Assembly (NCBI GenBank): GCA_951406725.2
Contig: OX597843.1
Coordinates: 17,484,001-17,548,000 of the forward strand
Direction: 5' to 3'
DNA: 64,000 nucleotides
Origin: Octopus vulgaris
Taxonomy: Eukaryota
Part shown: piece by piece, positions 3,800-61,893 of the stretch
How the letters are laid out: the number at the start of each line of letters is the position of its first letter
Position numbering within the stretch: position 1 is the stretch's first letter
The notes under the pieces: generated by a model
Told to the model about the DNA's origin: nothing
The model's input: only the letters and a program-made list of their open reading frames with translations
Databases searched by the model: none
Translations under genes and position numbers: made by a program

Positions 3800-4208
3800 T
3801 CTTTACTCTTTTACTTGTTTCAGTCATTTGACTGCGGCCATGCTGGAGCACCGTCTTTAGTCGAGCAAATCGACCCCGGGACTTATTCTTTGTAAGCCCA
3901 GTACTTATTCTATCGGTCTCTTTTGCCGAACCGCTAAGTGACAGGGACGTAAACACACCAGCATCGGTTGTCAAACAATGCTAGGGGGACAAACACAGAC
4001 ACACAAACACACACATACACATATACATATATATACATATATACGACAGGCTTCTTTCAGTTTCCGTCTACCATATCCACTCACAAGGCTTTGGTCGGTC
4101 CGAGGCTATAGTAGAAGACACTTGCCCAAGATGCCACGCAGTGGGACTGAACCCGGAACCATGTGGTTGGTAAGCAAGCTACATACCACACAGCCACTCC
4201 TGCGCCTA
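3800..4208 (-). mobile_element. tRNA-derived SINE family 1 (CORE-like), full length
   Basis: Head GGCGCAGGAGTGGCTGTGTGGT with A/B-box-like motifs, CTTGGGCAAGT core-like segment, internal TA/TG repeat and AAAGAGT tail; many copies in the window. Confidence 0.85.
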
Positions 4209-4875
4209 CATATATATTTTTTACCGTTTACCTTCTATGACTTGTTACAGTCATTGGATTGCAGCCATGCTGGGGCACCACCTTCAAGGTTTTCTTTAGT
4301 CGAATGAATCGAATCCGGGACTTATACATTTGTTTTAATGCCTCGTATCTTTTCTATCGGTTTCTTTTGTAAAAGCATTTATATTAACTGCGCTAATATA
4401 AATACTTTTACATACCTTTGTGTTTTGTTACTTCATATTTAAAGTTTTCTTCAAGCATATTATGGAAAATAAGCAATATAAAAGGAGATATATACTCAAA
4501 GTACCCACAGGAGGTAAAAGATATGTTAAAAAAAATTCTTTTACTTGCTTCAGTCATTAGACTGCGGCCATGCTGGAGAACTGACTCCAATACGTATTGT
4601 TTGTTTTAAGTCTGGCGCTTATTCTAAGGGTTTCTTTTGCCGAACCATTAAGTTGTGGAATTGTAAACACAACACCGGTTGTCAAACGGTGGTGGTGGTG
4701 TGAACATCAGATACAAAGACATACACACACACACACGGTCCACATTAATTTTACACTTTTTATACTCCGAGTAACAGGTTTGTTGAAATTCTGCTGCTTT
4801 TAAATAAAGCATATTACTCTACCCCTGGTATTTGAGTACTCTTTTTTCTCACCTTGTTTCACATTTATGTGTTTG

Positions 4876-4932
<57 letters not shown>

Positions 4933-5775
4933 ACATAAATATGTGTGTGTATATATATATATATACACATGCATACATGCAAACATGCATACACGCATAG
5001 ATGCATATATACATAAACATTCACGACTACATACATACATAATGCATACATACATACATATACGCACTAACGTTTTTGACGAAGTTAGAAGGCCAGCGGT
5101 TTTTGAGGGGAAGGATTAATCAATAATATTACTTTCAAGGTTTGGCACAAGGCCAGCAATTTCGGTGAGGGTGTAAGTTAGTTACATTGTTTTAATGATA
5201 CTTAATTTATCGACCCCGAAAAGGATGAAAGGCAAAGTCAACGTTGGTGAAATTTGAATTCAGAATAAATAGCGCTGGGTATTTTGACCGCTGGCACTCT
5301 ACCGATTCTCTCTCTTCCTCTCTCCCTCTCTCTTTTCTCTCTCACACACACACACACATTCACACATCTACACAAATGCATATATATATATATATTTATA
5401 CATATGTACATAAATATATATTTATATACTCACACATACATATGTATTATGCGTGAGCACGCAAGCCTGTGTGCATTATATATACACACATACACACACA
5501 CATATATATATGTATGCATGTATGTATGTATGTACGTATGTATGTATATATATATATGTAGATACATATATATATGTATATATATATACATATATACATA
5601 CATACATATATGTATGCATGTATGTATGTATGTACGTATCTACGTATATATATATATATGTATATATATACATGTATGTATATATATACATACATATGTA
5701 TATATGTATATATATACATACACACACACACATATATATATATGTATATATATGTATGTATTTATATATAAATAT

Positions 5776-5846
<71 letters not shown>

Positions 5847-6358
5847 AACGTATGTTCATAGACACAAACACACACTCACAGAGTATATTTAGATTCATAT
5901 GAATATACATGTGTACGCATGTCTATAGCCAATAAATACATTTCCCATTGGAATAATTCTTCTTTGTGGCCGGCTTTCAAACTCTCTTCTTCCGCCATTC
6001 CACGGCTAAGTGACGGGTTTCTGTTTCTAGATTCAATATGGCCGTATTTGCGTTAACATGGCGCGAGGGATACATCGCTACAAAAGGCGAAAGCATTACA
6101 ACAGCGTCACCTGGCGTCGGAAGACAGAGAAAATGGACAAACTTAATGAAGCGTGGTTTTGTGCTACGTAAAAATGTAACACTCTTCCTCAACATATGTT
6201 TGAATGTATTTATGTATGTATGTATATTTATACGAATAAGCATCTATAGGCTCCGTAATCCGTTCTTGTTGAAAACGGGTTTGTAATGGCTAAGTAAGTT
6301 ATTGATAACTTTGAAAACATTAGCGCAACACATATAGACAGTCGTACACACACACACG

Positions 6359-9480: not shown

Positions 9481-9988
9481 CCTAAGTAGGGTCAGATGGT
9501 TCATCTTTTATGTTAACGGTCGGTATTTCTACGAGCAGTTTTTTTTTATTATACGATGGCTTGCATAGTTATTCTTTGTTCGTTCCGGCAGATTCGAACG
9601 TGAATACGTTCATCGCCGTCATGTTCATCACAGGAGACCAGCTTCCCCTTTCATAACACACTTAATTCTGTGATACTGCTGTTTCAACATATTGTATCTC
9701 GTCAGCCAGAAGCACTCGCACCAATGAACCTTGCAAGAGTTGTCGGTCTTGTTTATAATTTCAGCGAACTGCTCTTCAGGCATTCTTTTGTTTATATTAA
9801 ACCCGAAGTATCCCACTTTTTGGGGAGTTTTGTTTCTTTAAAATTCCGTGTGTTGCGAAATAATCCTTAAATCCTTAAAAATGTTTTAGCCCGAAGGCCG
9901 CGGCCATGCTGGGGCACCACCGCTGTGGATAATATTTTTGTGTGGTCGAATGCTGATGGTTAATATGATGTAATTATTGTCTGTGTTG

Positions 9989-12499: not shown

Positions 12500-15058
12500 T
12501 TTTTTTTTTTCTTCTTTCAAATTTGCTTCCATTTCTTGCCGAGTGTCTTCCCGACTCCTAGGGCAAAGAAACTCATAGTATACTTTGGTAGGCCATTAAA
12601 CCAAACTCAGTAGTTCGTTCATTTTTTTTAATTTTTTTTTTTTTAAAGTTAAATTAAAATACATGAGCAGCAACAGTTCTCACATCGACAATGCTCTTCT
12701 CAATACGTGTGATGTACCAGTTAAGACAATCTTTTGCACTTCTTGCAGGGATGGTAAGCCAGGGATCATTCTCATATAATTTTCGGTTCCCTTCTTGATC
12801 ATTCCTAGTGCTCCTACGATCACTGGTATTGAGATGCCACATTTTCTCAATTTCAATGAGTAGGTCTTTATATTTTCTGAGCTTGTCAAACTCTTTCGCT
12901 GAGATATTATGATCACAGGGGATGCTCATGTCGATCAATAAGCAAACTTTATTGTTTTGGTCTTTCACAACAATATCTGGTTTATTGGCCTTGATGGTTC
13001 GGTCTGTATGTACTGGAAAGTCCCACAGAATCGTTACATTTTCTCCTTCAGTTACAGCTTCAGGGTGGTGATTATACCACTTGTCGGCAGTTTTGATATT
13101 GTAATGCCGACTTATTAGCCAGTGGAGATATTGGCCAACTCTGTCATGTCTTAATTTATACTCCACTGGTGCTAATCCAGAGATTAGGTGGTCCACTGTT
13201 TCAATCATGTTGCAAAATCGGCATTTTGGGTCTGCTCCATTTTTCATCACATTGGCCTGGTAGTTCCGGGTTAATAGGCTTTGATCTTGAGCAGCCAGGA
13301 TGAAACCTTCGCTCTCTGCTTTTAGCCCTGAGCTCCGTAGCCACTGATGGGTTTGCTTCTGGTCAACATCAGCTTGTTTGCTGCGGGTCACATATTTGCC
13401 GTGCAGAGGTTTCTCCTCCCACCTATCAGCCAATTGCTCGTGCGCTTTTTTCATTGCTATCATTTTCACCTTCTTTGCAACAATAGTTGCCGTACTTCCC
13501 TCGGGTTGTTCAGTTTGGGTATCCTGCACGAGATCAATAGCAAATTTTTTGCTTTCCTTTATGATAGAATGAAGCTTCTTTCGTCTCTCGTGATTTTCCA
13601 CGAGCTTTAGCATCCAGTCATTCGATATTTCGAGATATTTGGCCAGTCCAATTGTGGTTGATTTGTAAGCTAGTTCAAATTGGATCAGGCCTCGACCTCC
13701 TTGGGCTCTGGGAAGGTAAAGGCGATCTACGTCTACCTTTGGGTGGTGCATCCTATTACAACTCAGCAGCTTGCGTATTTTTCTATCTATATTCTTTACT
13801 TCACTCATATTCCAGTTCAACACATTGTAGCTATAAGTAACAACTGGAACTGCTAAGGAATTTATAGCTAACACCTTGTTACGTGCATTTAGTTCAGATT
13901 TCAGGACTGCACGAACTCTCCTATAACATTCCTTCCTGATTTCTCTTTCATGCTTGCATGCTGAATACCAGAGCCTTCATTTATCCCTAAATATTTGTAT
14001 GTTTGTTCTTGCTCAAGCTCTCTTATGACTGTGTCAACATCTAACACGACTGAATTTGTGGTCTTCACTTTCCCTTTCTGGAAAGTGGCCTTGGCACACT
14101 TCTCAAGTCCAAACTCCATCCCGATGTCATCGCTGAATGCTTTCACGGTGCGCAATAGGCCTTCAAGTTCATTATTGTCTTTACCATAAAGTTTTAAGTC
14201 ATCCATATAAAATAGATGGCTTATTTTTTTATTGGCAATTTTATACCCATACTCTGTTCTGTTTAATTCACTTGTAAGGGGTATTAGGGCTATGCAGAAT
14301 ATTAAAGGTGAAAGTGAGTCACCTTGAAAAATTCCACAGTTGATGTTTATATTTTCTGAGGCAAGTACTCCATTAGAGTGGTATAATTGGAGATTCGTAT
14401 TCCACAACGACATATTGTGCTTCAGGAAGTTTGAAATCACAGGGGAAATTTTGAAGATGTCCAGCGATCTCAAGATCCATGGATGCGATATACTGTCGAA
14501 GGCCTTTTTGTAGTCAATCCATGCGGTGCTGAGATTTCTGCGCTTGTTGTGACAGTTCTCAAGGATCATATGATTGATTAGCAGTTGATCTTTGCATCCG
14601 TAAGAGCCTCGGCGGCACCCTTTTTGTTCAATGGGGAAAATATCGTTCTTCTCCATGAATGCATATGTTTTCTCCGCCAGGATAGATGTTAGGATTTTAT
14701 ACGTGGTGGATAGACAGGTTATAGGCCGATAGTTTTTTGGAAGGTTGGTTTCGTTATTCTTTGGGAGTAGGTAAGTAATGCCACTTGCTAACCATTCAGG
14801 TGTTTTCTTTGGGTCTCTCATAATTCCATTGAGCAGCTGAACTAGCTTACCGTGTGCGCATGGGAGCGATGCAAGCCAGAAATTCGGCACCCTATCTTTA
14901 CCGGGGGATTTCCAATTATGGGCCTTCGTGAGTGCCTTTCTTAGGTCTGCTATTGTGATGTCTTCCCATGCTTGTTGTTGTAAATTTTGGTAGGATCCTT
15001 CAGTTTGTATAATCCAGTCTGCATTTATGTTGTACGTCTTCTTGTCACTCCTTGTCAC
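12500..15058 (-). mobile_element. 5'-truncated R4/Dong-like non-LTR retrotransposon (RT plus restriction-like endonuclease), frameshifted
   Basis: RT motifs GIFQGDSLSPLIF and LFYMDDLKLY (ORF 13901-15058). Zn-knuckle remnant CRFC..ETVDHL, RHD, KPDIVV..LIDMSIP..KYKDL and PVIVGALG follow. The 3' UTR ends in (TAA)n. Frameshifts near 13930 and 12830. Confidence 0.9.
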
Positions 15059-15321
15059 TTCTTGTCACCTTGCAGGTGGGGCCCAGTTAGAATTTTCTTC
15101 AGGTTGAGTAGCCCATCCCGCTCAAAAGGTCCCTGAATAAGGGTTGTTTAAGGATGTTGAAAGAACCACCCATGTTTCCAGAGGTGAATTATTCAAACCC
15201 CAAAGAATCCCTCTCAACACATGGCTATGATGCTCCCCCACTACTTCTGCTCGTGATCAGAGATGCACATATCGTCAGCCACTAAGGGACATGCTCAACT
15301 GGTTAAGGTCAAACAACTGAC

Positions 15322-36224: not shown

Positions 36225-36757
36225 TTAAGCGTAACAGGAGCCCAGATGTGATGGTACGTGACCGGCCGGATTTGAAACCATGTGATTCTGGATGTTGGGG
36301 TAGATGTTAGCGGCGTTCGGTGTTGACCAATAAGAAGCCGGTGCGGCAAATAGACCGGAAGCTGCCGAGTGCGGCACACCGGAATGGGCGTTGATGAAGT
36401 TCATTTTTGAGCTCGTGTATCCAGTGAGAAAGAGGTCCTGTTGATAACGGTAGCTGGTGGGGTCGGCCGTTGACGGCTGCATGGCCTGAGCCAGACCGGC
36501 GAAGTCGAACTTGTAAGCGTAGCGTTTGCCGTGTACCTTTGTCATGATGTTCTTGTCGTAATAATAGCGAAGGGCACGGCTGAGTTTGTCGTAGTTCATG
36601 TTGGGTTTGCTCTTGCGCTCGCCCCAACGCCGGGCCACCTCGTCCGGGTCCACCAGTTTGAACTCCCCGTTCGTGCCTTCCCATGTGATGCAGCTGGCAT
36701 TGTTACTGTCTGAGAGAAGCTCCAGGAGGAATTGCCACAACTGGATTTGGCCACTTC
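36225..36757 (-). CDS. ERG: Terminal coding exon of an ERG/FLI1-family ETS transcription factor (ETS domain plus C-terminal tail)
   Basis: Translates (G)[16 protein letters not shown]...[42 protein letters not shown]...HLGSCYA*, the ERG/FLI ETS signature. Phase-1 acceptor ttttttctatattgcag ends at 36758; TAA stop at 36227-36225. The N-terminus of ORF 36225..36851 is intron read-through. Confidence 0.96.
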
Positions 36758-36974
36758 CTGCAATATAGAAAAAAAAGGAGGCTGAGATAAGAAAGATTAA
36801 ACATACAAATAAGGACTTGTAGGCAGACGGTGTTGCGTTGTGCAACCACAATATGCTACGAAGTATAGGAAACGTTTTTATAAGTCAATGCCGTCTACTT
36901 GTGTGTTAGCAGTGCACTTAAATCACGTGTTATAGAAATTATAGCCAGCAGGGATTTTGGTACATCGTTTCGTA

Positions 36975-37728: not shown

Positions 37729-37824
37729 CGTGCACACACATACATACACATGCACACACACACACACACACATATATTAAAGTAAAGCATAGAAAGAAAG
37801 GCGGTGGAGCACCAGTTCCCTTAC

Positions 37825-37872
37825 CTGTGTTACAAAGTCGATTCGAGATTTGCCGGAAGAATTTGTAAGGAT
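37825..37872 (-). CDS. ERG: Penultimate 48-nt coding exon of the ERG/FLI gene (DPYKFFRQISNRLCNTG)
   Basis: Flanked by ttttgttctttcttcag and gtaagg, phase 1-1, and splices in frame to GSGQIQLW. Corresponds to the vertebrate ERG/FLI1 DPYQILGPTSSRLANPG exon. Missing from the ORF track. Confidence 0.9.
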
Positions 37873-37929
37873 CTGAAGAAAGAACAAAAGAAAATAGAAT
37901 CAGATTTCATCACCTGCATGTTGTTGTTG

Positions 37930-39999: not shown

Positions 40000-40059
<60 letters not shown>

Positions 40060-40570
40060 TGAATGAATTATCCTATGTTTATCGTCAGCATGGAAAATTC
40101 GTTCGACTCCATTCTTTCATTTAGTCATATATATATATATATATAGATGCAGGCAGACGATTAGAAAGACTTATGAATCGCATATACATCTGTACATCCG
40201 TGTGTCCGTGTGTCCATGTGTGTGCACATATGGCTATGTATGAGCTATTTGTTTCATATTTTTGTTTGAGTTTTATACAAATTGTTTGTTAAGAGAGGTC
40301 GGAGCGGACGCTCCCAAAGCGACAAGACCCTCCTGAGTTAAGAGAGTTGCCGGTGTTTGTAAATATGATGTGGTGTTGGTCGGATGGTCGAGCTGGCGAG
40401 GTGTGCGTGTATTATTAGATATATACATTCATCGACGGACGGATGCAGGCATATGTCTATATGGTTCAGTCTATATATGTACACTCACTGACATACACAC
40501 ACACACGCACACATACCTATATATATGGATTTATTCATAGTCACATAATGTATATGTATACATAGGCCTA

Positions 40571-45281: not shown

Positions 45282-45349
<68 letters not shown>

Positions 45350-45483
45350 TAGTTGAATGAATTATCCTAGTATGGATAATTCGGTTAACCGATACCCGGG
45401 CAGCAAATTTATCACTATGGACTCCGTGTGGGCTGTCATCTAAAAGTTTTTGTTCGTCATGATGCTGACATAAGTTCCTTGTC

Positions 45484-45564
45484 TTTCCTGATGAGAAGGC
45501 GGCATAATGCACCCTTTATTCCTTCGGAATTAAGAATATGCAGTCTTCGAAACATATGTCGAGA
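45484..45564 (+). ncRNA. Type I hammerhead ribozyme motif, canonical core
   Basis: Stem I UUUC/GAGA; CUGAUGA (45488-45494); stem II GAAGGC-G-GCAUA / UAUGC-A-GUCUUC; GAA; palindromic stem III ACAUAUGU; C17 at 45560 (GUC triplet). Confidence 0.85.
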
Positions 45565-45602
45565 ATAAAGGAATTTTGTTAAATCGTCGTTCGACTCCAT
45601 TC

Positions 45603-45665
<63 letters not shown>

Positions 45666-51728: not shown

Positions 51729-51767
<39 letters not shown>

Positions 51768-52109
51768 AATATAAGAGTGTCCACTATGTGGACGCTCTTG
51801 CGCTAAAAATAGATCTGCAATGGTCTTAAACACCAAGAATTGTTCCCAAGGAGAATTAGCACACCTATGGGAACAATTCTTGGTGGTTGAGACCATTGCG
51901 GATCTATTTTTAGCGCAAGAGTGTCCACATAGTGGACACTCTTATATTTGTGTATCAATTTCTACTGTATCCCAATTTTTATGCGCTAAACCACTTGGTG
52001 TTAAATTGATGTTATTATCAAATTAATATCCAAATTTTTCACCCTTATTTTTGATATATATACTCTTTTACTTGTTTCAGTCATTTGACTGTGGCCATGC
52101 TAGACACCG

Positions 52110-60692: not shown

Positions 60693-61693
60693 GTCATCCC
60701 ATAAGTTCCGTCCGAATTTACTTTTTTTAAAAATTGAATGAAATTTAAAAGTATTTTAGAATGTCTAATGGGATTAAAAATGATTTTTATGCATTTGTCT
60801 ACATTTAAACTAATTAAATATTATTTTACAGAATAATAGAATTAAAATTTCTTTGATTAAAACCATTTCTAACATGGAAGTATCCAAAGAGCATTTAAGG
60901 CACAAAATTCTTTATGAGTACCAAAAAGTAAACTCTGCAGCCGAAGCGACTCGAAACATACACTCAGTTTATGGGAAAGAATGCTTGAATGAAAGAACTT
61001 GCAGAAGATGGTTTGCAAAATTCAGAAGTGGAGATTTCAGCCTTGAAGATGAAGATCAAACAGGACGTCCAGTTGAGTTTGATGATAAGCTCTTTGAAGC
61101 ACTACTTGAAGAAAATCCTGCATTATCAGTTGAAGCATTGGCGATAAAACTTAGTTCAAACCATACAACTGTTCATCGTCATCTTCAACAACTTGGAAAG
61201 GTTCCTAAACTTGGATAATGGGTGCCTCATGAATTGTCCGAAAGCAACAGTAAATCCCGAGTTGACATCTGCTCTTTTCTCCATTCTCACAAACTCATTT
61301 CCCCCTTTTTGGATAGACTTGTGACTGGTGACGAGAAATGGTTCTTCTATCGAAATGTTAAACGTCGTAAATAGTGGCTTGGAAAAAGGGAAAAAGCTCA
61401 ACCACAACCGAGAAGCGAACTTCATGGAAAAAAGGTTCTTCACTCAATCTGGTGGGATTGCCAAGGAATAATTCACTTTGAATTGTTACCACCTAATACA
61501 ACAATCAATACTCAAGTCTACTGCCAGCAATTGGAGCATTTGAACCAAGCTTTGAAGAAAAAAAGACCCGCTTTAGTGAATCGAAAAGAAGTGATGTTTC
61601 ATCAGGACAATGCGCGGCTCCACACTGCAAAGATCACATCACAGAAGATCGAAAAGCTTGGTTGGGAAAAAATTCCTCATCCACCTTATTCTT
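60689..61693 (+). mobile_element. mariner element, 3'-truncated transposase pseudogene
   Basis: TA-TCAGGTC left end; ATG at 60874; HTH region, WVPHEL, TGDEKW, HQDNAR and HPPYS motifs; in-frame stops at 61216 and about 61372. Confidence 0.9.
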
Positions 61694-61893
61694 CCTACTT
61701 ACTTTTTACTACTGTTTTCTATTTATTGTACTTTATTGTACTTTATTGATACTTTTTTATAGTATATGTTTTTTTTTATATGGTGTGAATAACATCTTTC
61801 TTTATTGAATTGTTTAATAGAGATTTTTCTCTAAATTATATATATGTATATATATGTATATATATATATGTATATATATGCATATATATATGT

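Follow-up and report, generated by a model that had tools for sequence, protein, structure and literature searches.

A long-armed hammerhead motif in a truncated Penelope-like insertion of Octopus vulgaris

The hammerhead motif and its surroundings

The window, that is, the whole 64,000-nucleotide stretch of the Octopus vulgaris contig OX597843.1 that was analysed, contains at 45484..45564 of its plus strand a motif with the parts of a type I hammerhead ribozyme: a CUGANGA core, a GAAA box, an NUH triplet, and three stems, of which stem I is open (Table 1). An earlier note on this DNA had named the CUGAUGA and GAAA boxes and the GUC triplet, and all of them can be read in the sequence. The palindromic stem III and the AUUCC-UUC-GGAAU hairpin in loop II are also where it placed them, and the interrupted 11-bp stem II is seen as 6 + 5 pairs around one G·A mismatch. 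The extent assigned to the motif was right as to its core and too short as to stem I, which reaches farther on both sides.

Table 1. Features at and around the hammerhead motif (positions in the window)
Feature	Position	Strand	Details
Last exon (ETS domain) of ERG/FLI-like gene	36228-36761	-	PF00178, E 2.4e-36; 77% to mollusc Fli-1/Erg
Probable penultimate ERG/FLI exon	37817-37879	-	Weak collinear tblastn hit
Second two-ended insertion in (TA)n, ~70 bp	40056..40125	.	Inverted sister-subfamily long end + sense short end
(TA)n target microsatellite, left flank	45285..45347	.
Inverted last ~62 nt of ~150-nt 3' tail	45348..45409	-	"Long" 3' end at 45348
Hairpin of 9 bp, shortly before the long 3' end	45359-45382	-
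5'-truncated sense piece of 3' UTR/pseudo-LTR	45409..45608	+	"Short" 3' end, 47 nt past cleavage site
Stem I, strands overall	45472..45487 (5' strand), 45561..45576 (3' strand)	+
Stem I, distal helix	45472-80/45568-76	+	9 bp
Stem I, proximal helix	45484-87/45561-64	+	4 bp; 3x3 loop separates distal helix
Catalytic core CUGAUGA	45488-45494	+	Sequence reading and descriptor scan
Enlarged domain II, 54 nt	45495..45548	+	Stem, asymmetric internal loop, apical hairpin 45514-45534
Stem II	45495-45506/45537-45548	+	12 positions: 6 + 5 pairs around G45501·A45542 mismatch
Apical hairpin AUUCC-UUC-GGAAU	45518-45530	+	Three further pairs (45514-16/45532-34) beyond U·U
GAAA box	45549-45552	+
Stem III, self-complementary ACAUAUGU	45552-45559	+
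GUC triplet	Ends at 45560	+	Predicted cleavage after C45560
(TA)n target microsatellite, right flank	45607..45661	.

When the window was scanned with a descriptor on both strands, this site was returned together with one weaker site, in two parses, at 9705 on the minus strand. The latter (9670-9705, minus) is a compact, degenerate hammerhead-like motif with a CUGACGA core, a 13-nt domain II, and the imperfect palindrome ACAGCAGU. The folding z-score of 45465-45580 is -2.54, with 1 of 200 shuffles equally good, and that of domain II is -2.36. The rarity of the motif in the descriptor scan, the z-score of the whole segment, and its 39 exact genome copies argue against a chance origin. Judged from its sequence, 45484..45564 is a genuine type I hammerhead motif whose cleavage is only predicted. 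A targeted Rfam scan found no match up to an E value of 10, and the whole-window Rfam scan was dominated by microsatellite matches. The long domain II is the likely cause of the targeted miss, which is not taken to exclude the motif from the hammerheads. A search of the PDB returned no relevant entry.

The window also includes part of an ERG/FLI-like gene. Beyond the window, further weak upstream hits at ~65,840-65,950 and 68,230-68,290 (extended coordinates) are collinear with the exons in Table 1; the tblastn E values of the upstream exons range from 0.002 to 0.5. Searches with SAM_PNT and with whole proteins detected no ERG PNT exons near the window. As had been claimed, the motif is antisense to ERG, the ETS exon being on the minus strand and the motif on the plus strand. 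Because collinear exons lie at 37817-37879 and beyond the window, it is probably located within a 28-kb ERG/FLI intron. Because the ribozyme is antisense, the ERG pre-mRNA would contain its complement and cannot be cleaved by it. The window has one hammerhead of this family, and the nearest same-strand motif in the 264 kb scanned is ~139 kb away, so that no partner for a cis dimer is available at the locus. A function at this locus is very unlikely.

Three ERG/FLI-like ETS exons are found on the same chromosome (7847777-7848322, 8319705-8320220, and 17520231-17520761); they are 75-78% identical to chiton Erg, which suggests a local triplication. About 500 bases past the window end, a hammerhead-like motif of another family (L156:424-500, minus) lies in sense orientation in the same probable ERG intron. 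It combines CUGAUGA with a 58-nt domain II, the palindrome ACAGCUGU, and GUA.

The earlier note had described 45348-45608 as a host element that starts with its own hairpin. The segment instead combines two fragments of a Penelope-like retroelement of ~3.6 kb, one from the tail and inverted, the other from the 3' end and in sense orientation. Positions 45348..45409 are the reverse complement of the tail present in longer copies (L024, L032, and others), and the 45409..45608 piece matches query positions 58/60-258 at many loci with 97-99% identity. The hairpin is real, and a predicted hairpin recurs at its place in sister subfamilies, but it belongs to the opposite strand. On this sequence evidence, the 261-bp segment is two truncated retroelement 3' ends, joined head to head in (TA)n. 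A fixed inversion centre, deduced from a shared breakpoint, was rejected because that breakpoint is the query's own junction.

The second insertion, which had been noted at 40060-40120 as a copy that keeps both ends and lacks the ribozyme, does share both ends with the larger one. With arms of ~40 nt and ~30 nt, it is too truncated to include the ribozyme; a loss of the ribozyme need not be invoked, and the segment fits a more truncated insertion of a sister subfamily. Its variant long-end sequence is also present as a loose end in contigs of sequencing runs X1 and X7.

Other repeats in the window include a long near-perfect inverted repeat at 51759-51957, with a spurious MIR2670 match, which is probably a MITE-like element; a non-LTR reverse transcriptase remnant at 12657-15064 (minus); and a mariner-type transposase remnant at 60814-61746 (plus).

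The 258-bp segment is a repeat, with 2,423 first-look candidates, 40 of them scored, in the genome searched (2.8 Gb in 227 contigs). The exact 73-nt core is found in 39 copies, and an intact core with a domain II of 54-56 nt at 4,512 sites; the controls, including the reversed pattern for the exact core, gave 0 in both cases. The family is also present in the contigs of four sequencing runs, with no usable ends. The 45484 locus is one copy among many and is not special. It had been singled out as the best candidate for an active ribozyme, a rank that does not suit an ordinary locus whose core recurs identically in the genome and which has no nearby same-strand partner. Eight octopus subfamilies, W (that of the window) and A to G, were examined. 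A different hammerhead, with a 29-nt domain II and the 10-nt palindrome ACGUUGACGU, is found on the minus strand of L113 in two copies ~565 bp apart (region 5535-5584 and 6149-6198).

The parent retroelement

Longer copies of the repeat run into an open reading frame (ORF) with YRDD and GIY-YIG motifs. Full-length relatives encode a reverse transcriptase (RT) and GIY-YIG ORF of ~895 aa between two hammerheads ~3.6 kb apart. L106, for instance, has an open frame of 899 codons between hammerheads at 1378 and 5035, a distance of 3,657 bp, with the upstream site 267 nt before the first Met of the ORF; in L155, three hammerheads follow one another at intervals of 3,624 bp. Intact frames of ~900 codons are found in sister subfamilies. 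Among the fetched loci of the window's own subfamily there was no intact ORF, the longest (833 and 804 codons) being 5'-truncated or broken. The GIY-YIG match (PF01541, E 5.5e-4) is below the curated cut-off, and a Pfam scan of six proteins did not detect the RT domain. The closest named homologs of the element protein are from Octopus and Argonauta. The family displays pseudo-LTRs (pLTRs), tandem and inverted arrangements, an optional tail, and a hammerhead in the pLTR, all of them Penelope-like features; the origin of the motif from a Penelope-like element (PLE) is near certain.

A parent from the Neptune clade was ruled out by the absence of the CX2-5CxxC linker and the CCHH motif. The features given for the Hydra clade in section 11 of PMC8557442 are DKT, an RW motif, no CCHH, CxxC..E, and CxH. 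In the octopus proteins, SDKT or ADKT (DKG modified to DKT) is present in 8 of 8 ORFs and RIRW(L/A/K/R) in 6 of 6 ORFs that retain the N terminus, with the exact RWK in one. The endonuclease (EN) has no CCHH, and CxxC and CxH flank the conserved E and N. The likeness to Hydra-1_Obim was assessed visually, one motif at a time, on the published supplement. The CxCX5C linker is present in D, E, F, and the homologs P0002-P0004 and absent from W, A, B, and C. An Asn/Ser-rich stretch replaces it in the latter four (L106:1706-4402, L136:1287-3620, and the L151 ORF), the ends of which are still flanked by (TA)n; the cysteine linker has been proposed, in the text of PMC8557442, as the mediator of (TA)n targeting.

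In a midpoint-rooted tree of 15 proteins, with no named Hydra row and with P0005 and P0009-P0011 left out, the window subclade has a support of 100/100. Because CxCX5C has been lost from it and kept in the sister families D-F, this subclade is filed as a derived offshoot: by its protein motifs, it is a linker-less lineage with a Hydra-type RT and EN, and not a textbook member of the Hydra clade. Family C has a U4-to-C change in its core, which reads CCGAAGA in each of the two pLTRs of an L136 element (967-1041 and 3830-3904) with an intact frame of 778 codons.

The long arm, the palindrome, and the 3' ends

The long arm of the motif is its domain II, which, counted from after CUGANGA to before GAAA, has 54 nt in W; 55 in A, G, and B; 55-56 in C; 51 in D; 60 in E; and 57-58 in F. 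The 26 Hydra rows in File S2 of PMC8557442 have 12-26 nt, so that the octopus domain II is about twice the longest listed there for Hydra elements. Its length stays at 54-56 nt across subfamilies with ORF identity of 58-70% and at 51-60 nt down to about 33-46%. The upstream UTR of W is 48-57% identical to those of the other subfamilies, with a shuffle baseline of 48%.

In an alignment of 17 sequences, 91% of the stem II cells are paired, and 5 of the 12 pairs show changes on both sides, counts that come from related sequences and stand for a handful of independent events; slid controls for the whole structure give 33-51% pairing. Because the 17 sequences are related, the shuffle control overstates the significance. 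The double-changed pairs fall in pairs 7-12, far from the core. Double changes affect 1 of 11 pairs in distal stem I, and the three monomer pairs of stem III are invariant. Between W and B, the youngest subfamily, 13 of the 24 stem positions differ and 11 of the 12 pairs are kept, versus 5.4 expected when the observed substitutions are scattered over the stem (0 of 5,000 permutations as good). All 20 ordered comparisons of five subfamilies retain 11-12 pairs versus 5.2-9.5 expected (P <= 0.048 in each). The apical helix is weaker, with 83% of cells paired and one pair with a double change; one apical pair in one subfamily is U-A, C-G, or U-G in 37, 14, and 8 of 62 rows, respectively, with ~5 rows mis-parsed. 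From the same alignment, RNAalifold predicted stem II together with two pairs of stem III; stem I and the apical hairpin were missing from its prediction. Taken together, the alignments point to selection on the structure of the long arm, its stem being kept by compensatory change within a UTR near background-level identity.

Two other pairings were considered and dropped. In one, proposed by RNAalifold (alignment A1 columns 47-52 and 148-153), the core would pair with a conserved UCKUCG farther downstream, which would silence the ribozyme; this pairing runs across distal stem I, does not hold in some young copies, and shows one both-side change only. The other, an AUGG/CCAU pseudoknot linking domain II to the short end, fails in families C-F, as judged by eye.

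It is possible, if doubtful, that the expansion of domain II is tolerated, any stable hairpin that closes the core being sufficient and only its base being selected. Stem II length is variable in known hammerheads, as described in PMC3088659, and two spike-moss PLE hammerheads in File S2 of PMC8557442 have loops II of 29-35 nt. Identity of domain II between distant subfamilies is only 49-60%, its apical part is laid out differently between clades, and single copies with a 47- or 49-nt domain II exist. Tolerated expansion, however, would hardly keep the length of domain II while the adjoining UTR approaches background identity, place double changes in the stem pairs distant from the core, or switch an apical pair between U-A and C-G with U-G intermediates within one subfamily. 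As a selected structure, the long arm would most likely be a docking or protein-binding surface that tunes the time of cutting. A more specific proposal, offered tentatively, is that in the octopus Hydra radiation it forms a selected docking or protein-binding switch: a dimer hammerhead would be kept off while the RNA templates twin priming at two sites separated by 150 nt, and its cutting would be confined to tandem transcripts, in a lineage that targets (TA)n without the cysteine linker.

The stem III 8-mer is ACAUAUGU, ACAUGUGU, or ACACGUGU, all self-complementary, in 87 of 88 distinct copies, a count made with a search pattern that fixed six of the eight positions and limited a seventh to C or T. 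The 8-mers of distant families, ACGAUCGU, ACAAUUGU, and ACGAUUGU, are all self-complementary as well. The palindrome is kept in all subfamilies, including the two central bases that are free in the monomer. For the window sequence as a monomer, the predicted probabilities are 0.00-0.01 for stem III and 0.11-0.12 for proximal stem I, and the predicted monomer misfolds, with the core AUG paired to the palindrome. The active strand-swapped dimer is predicted at -57.6 kcal/mol versus -52.4 for two monomers, i.e., 5.2 lower, and the best dimer at -58.7. Metazoan PLE hammerheads are described in PMC4209133 as inactive as monomers and weak as dimers in vitro. The idea of a possibly dimer-dependent ribozyme is therefore the best reading of a monomer with next to no stem III, a favoured dimer, and a kept palindrome; the special standing given to this locus falls away. 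On these folding models, dimer-dependent activity of the family is likely.

A ribozyme of the same retroelement origin might instead work as a monomer if the long stem II docked on the long, looped stem I, or if the element's protein bound it, and so offset the weak stem III. Stems I and II are both extended and are interrupted at about the distance at which canonical hammerheads make tertiary contacts, the role of which is treated in PMC3088659; stem III has three possible pairs, like the published Hydra hammerheads drawn as monomers in PMC8557442; and the ribozyme of an anole PLE is reported to be protein-assisted (PMC11167929). Monomer action is nonetheless rather improbable: the central bases of the palindrome pass from U-A through U-G to C-G with intermolecular pairing always kept, the monomer is predicted to misfold, and families D-F keep the long domain II, some of them with only a 4-bp stem I.

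The 3' ends of the copies bear on how a dimer-dependent hammerhead could fit the life cycle of the element. Among 72 3' ends from loci L001-L075, 35 are short, 35 are long, and 2 are elsewhere. On the reference, short ends lie 52-62 nt and long ends ~196 nt past the cleavage site; the short end is at 47 nt in the window, the class being lengthened on the reference where A/T letters overlap the flank. The copies stop 47-57 or 196 nt beyond the site. A (TA)4 run is present within 30 nt after 61 of the 70 short or long ends, a raw count. Inverted pairs combine a long and a short end in 31 of 33 cases, both exceptions being one complex locus seen twice; 24 of the 31 come from the composite query and are biased, and loci derived from the ORF end give 7 of 7. 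This one-long-one-short rule fits the two-start-site mechanism seen in vitro for the anole element in PMC11167929. The 150-nt tail (L024:1348-1522 and L106:5134-5328) has a long predicted hairpin (GCACG...CGUGY); the terminal tail hairpin recurs in several subfamilies, and tail hairpins are candidate RT binding or start signals.

According to PMC11167929, both strands are nicked by the anole PLE, whose tail is delimited by the two internal sites where its reverse transcription begins. It uses uncleaved RNA, and its protein-assisted hammerhead is dispensable for insertion in vitro, with no RNA ends seen at the site. Since the octopus copies run past the cleavage site, the RNA that was reverse transcribed was presumably uncut there or rejoined, and the ribozyme would thus be off or reversible at the copying stage. 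In the cycle proposed for the octopus element, two hammerheads of a tandem transcript would swap strands via the palindrome, cut, and release unit-length RNA; a cut at the upstream site of tandem elements could define the RNA 5' end. The element protein would nick both (TA)n strands and prime at two internal RNA sites. Priming at both would account for the window insertion, with its arms of ~60 nt and ~200 nt, and for the one at 40,060, with arms of ~40 nt and ~30 nt.

The whole is best read, with a probability of about 0.8, as the pLTR hammerhead of a Hydra-type PLE, carried in a truncated head-to-head (TA)n insertion, with predicted dimer- or protein-dependent cleavage and likely inert at this locus. 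A small non-autonomous element of ~260 bp (MITE- or retrozyme-like, possibly acting on ERG, with 40,060 as its deletion derivative) is highly improbable: ~20 loci do have the same composite 245-272-bp layout, the two ends of the 261-bp segment resemble an imperfect inverted repeat, and PLE pLTRs are the reported source of retrozymes (preprint 10.64898/2026.07.22.740005), but those loci were chosen by the composite query and their junctions differ, which largely refutes such an element, each of the two arms occurs in many lengths, some reaching full ORFs, the loci read contain no tandem arrays of the short unit, and the motif is solitary and antisense to the host gene.

Comparison with known systems

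A hammerhead in the pLTR of a Hydra-type PLE is a known kind of system; the octopus one has a clade-wide enlarged and selected domain II. The literature search found no paper on an octopus long-arm Hydra-type hammerhead; Lunse et al. may describe long-arm variants. The words "hammerhead," "ribozyme," and "Hydra" are absent from the main text of a 2026 O. vulgaris repeat paper (PMC13282606). For the question of why PLEs have hammerheads, the octopus family offers young, intact, and tandem elements, natural compensatory variants, and thousands of insertion footprints, which make it possible to test directly for dimer dependence, for help by proteins, and for what the long arm does; the 45484 locus itself has no evident role. 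Because long-armed motifs escape Rfam and a single pattern gave 4,512 sites, counts of animal ribozymes are probably too low.

The closest relatives are the elements of the Hydra clade, such as Hydra-1_Obim, as presented by Craig et al. (2021; PMC8557442, text and supplement). They share with the octopus family a single ORF with RT and C-terminal GIY-YIG domains, DKT and RW motifs, the lack of CCHH, CxxC and CxH around E and N, (TA)n flanks, inverted 5'-truncated copies, and a type I hammerhead near the 3' end with a short palindromic stem III. In contrast to the Hydra elements described there, the octopus family has a domain II of 51-60 nt (12-26 nt in Hydra), a unit of ~3.6 kb (under 3 kb), a tail of ~150 nt (30-40 bp), and, in the window subclade, no CxCX5C linker. 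Its hammerhead sequence also differs from that shown for Hydra-1_oBim.

Like the metazoan PLE hammerheads described by Cervera and de la Pena (2014; PMC4209133), the octopus motif is of type I, with a short proximal helix I, a longer helix II, and a palindromic helix III. Both groups have thousands of solo truncated copies, opposite-strand pairs 100-700 bp apart, and predicted dimer activity. The helix II reported there has 6-8 bp, whereas the octopus one has 12 positions followed by an internal loop and a second hairpin, and the window subfamily does not have the extra base between A9 and G10.1.

PAc Poseidon of Anolis, as characterized by Frangieh et al. (2024; PMC11167929), has two defined 3' ends that bound an optional tail, AT-rich targets, and copies that extend past the hammerhead cleavage site, all as in octopus. 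It belongs to a different PLE clade, and its start sites lie inside the ORF, 30-40 nt apart, whereas in octopus the two ends fall in non-coding RNA, are separated by ~150 nt, and are combined, one of each kind, in inverted insertions.

The spike-moss PLE-X1 rows in File S2 of PMC8557442 also have a large loop II (29-35 nt, flagged there as non-canonical), but these elements are endonuclease-less, related to Chlamys, and targeted to 28S rDNA in plants. Finally, the non-LTR retrozymes outlined in preprint 10.64898/2026.07.22.740005 resemble the octopus locus in that they are non-coding, carry type I hammerheads, and come from PLE pLTRs; their defining trait is a tandem array of short units, in contrast to the octopus locus, a single head-to-head insertion with no tandem array.
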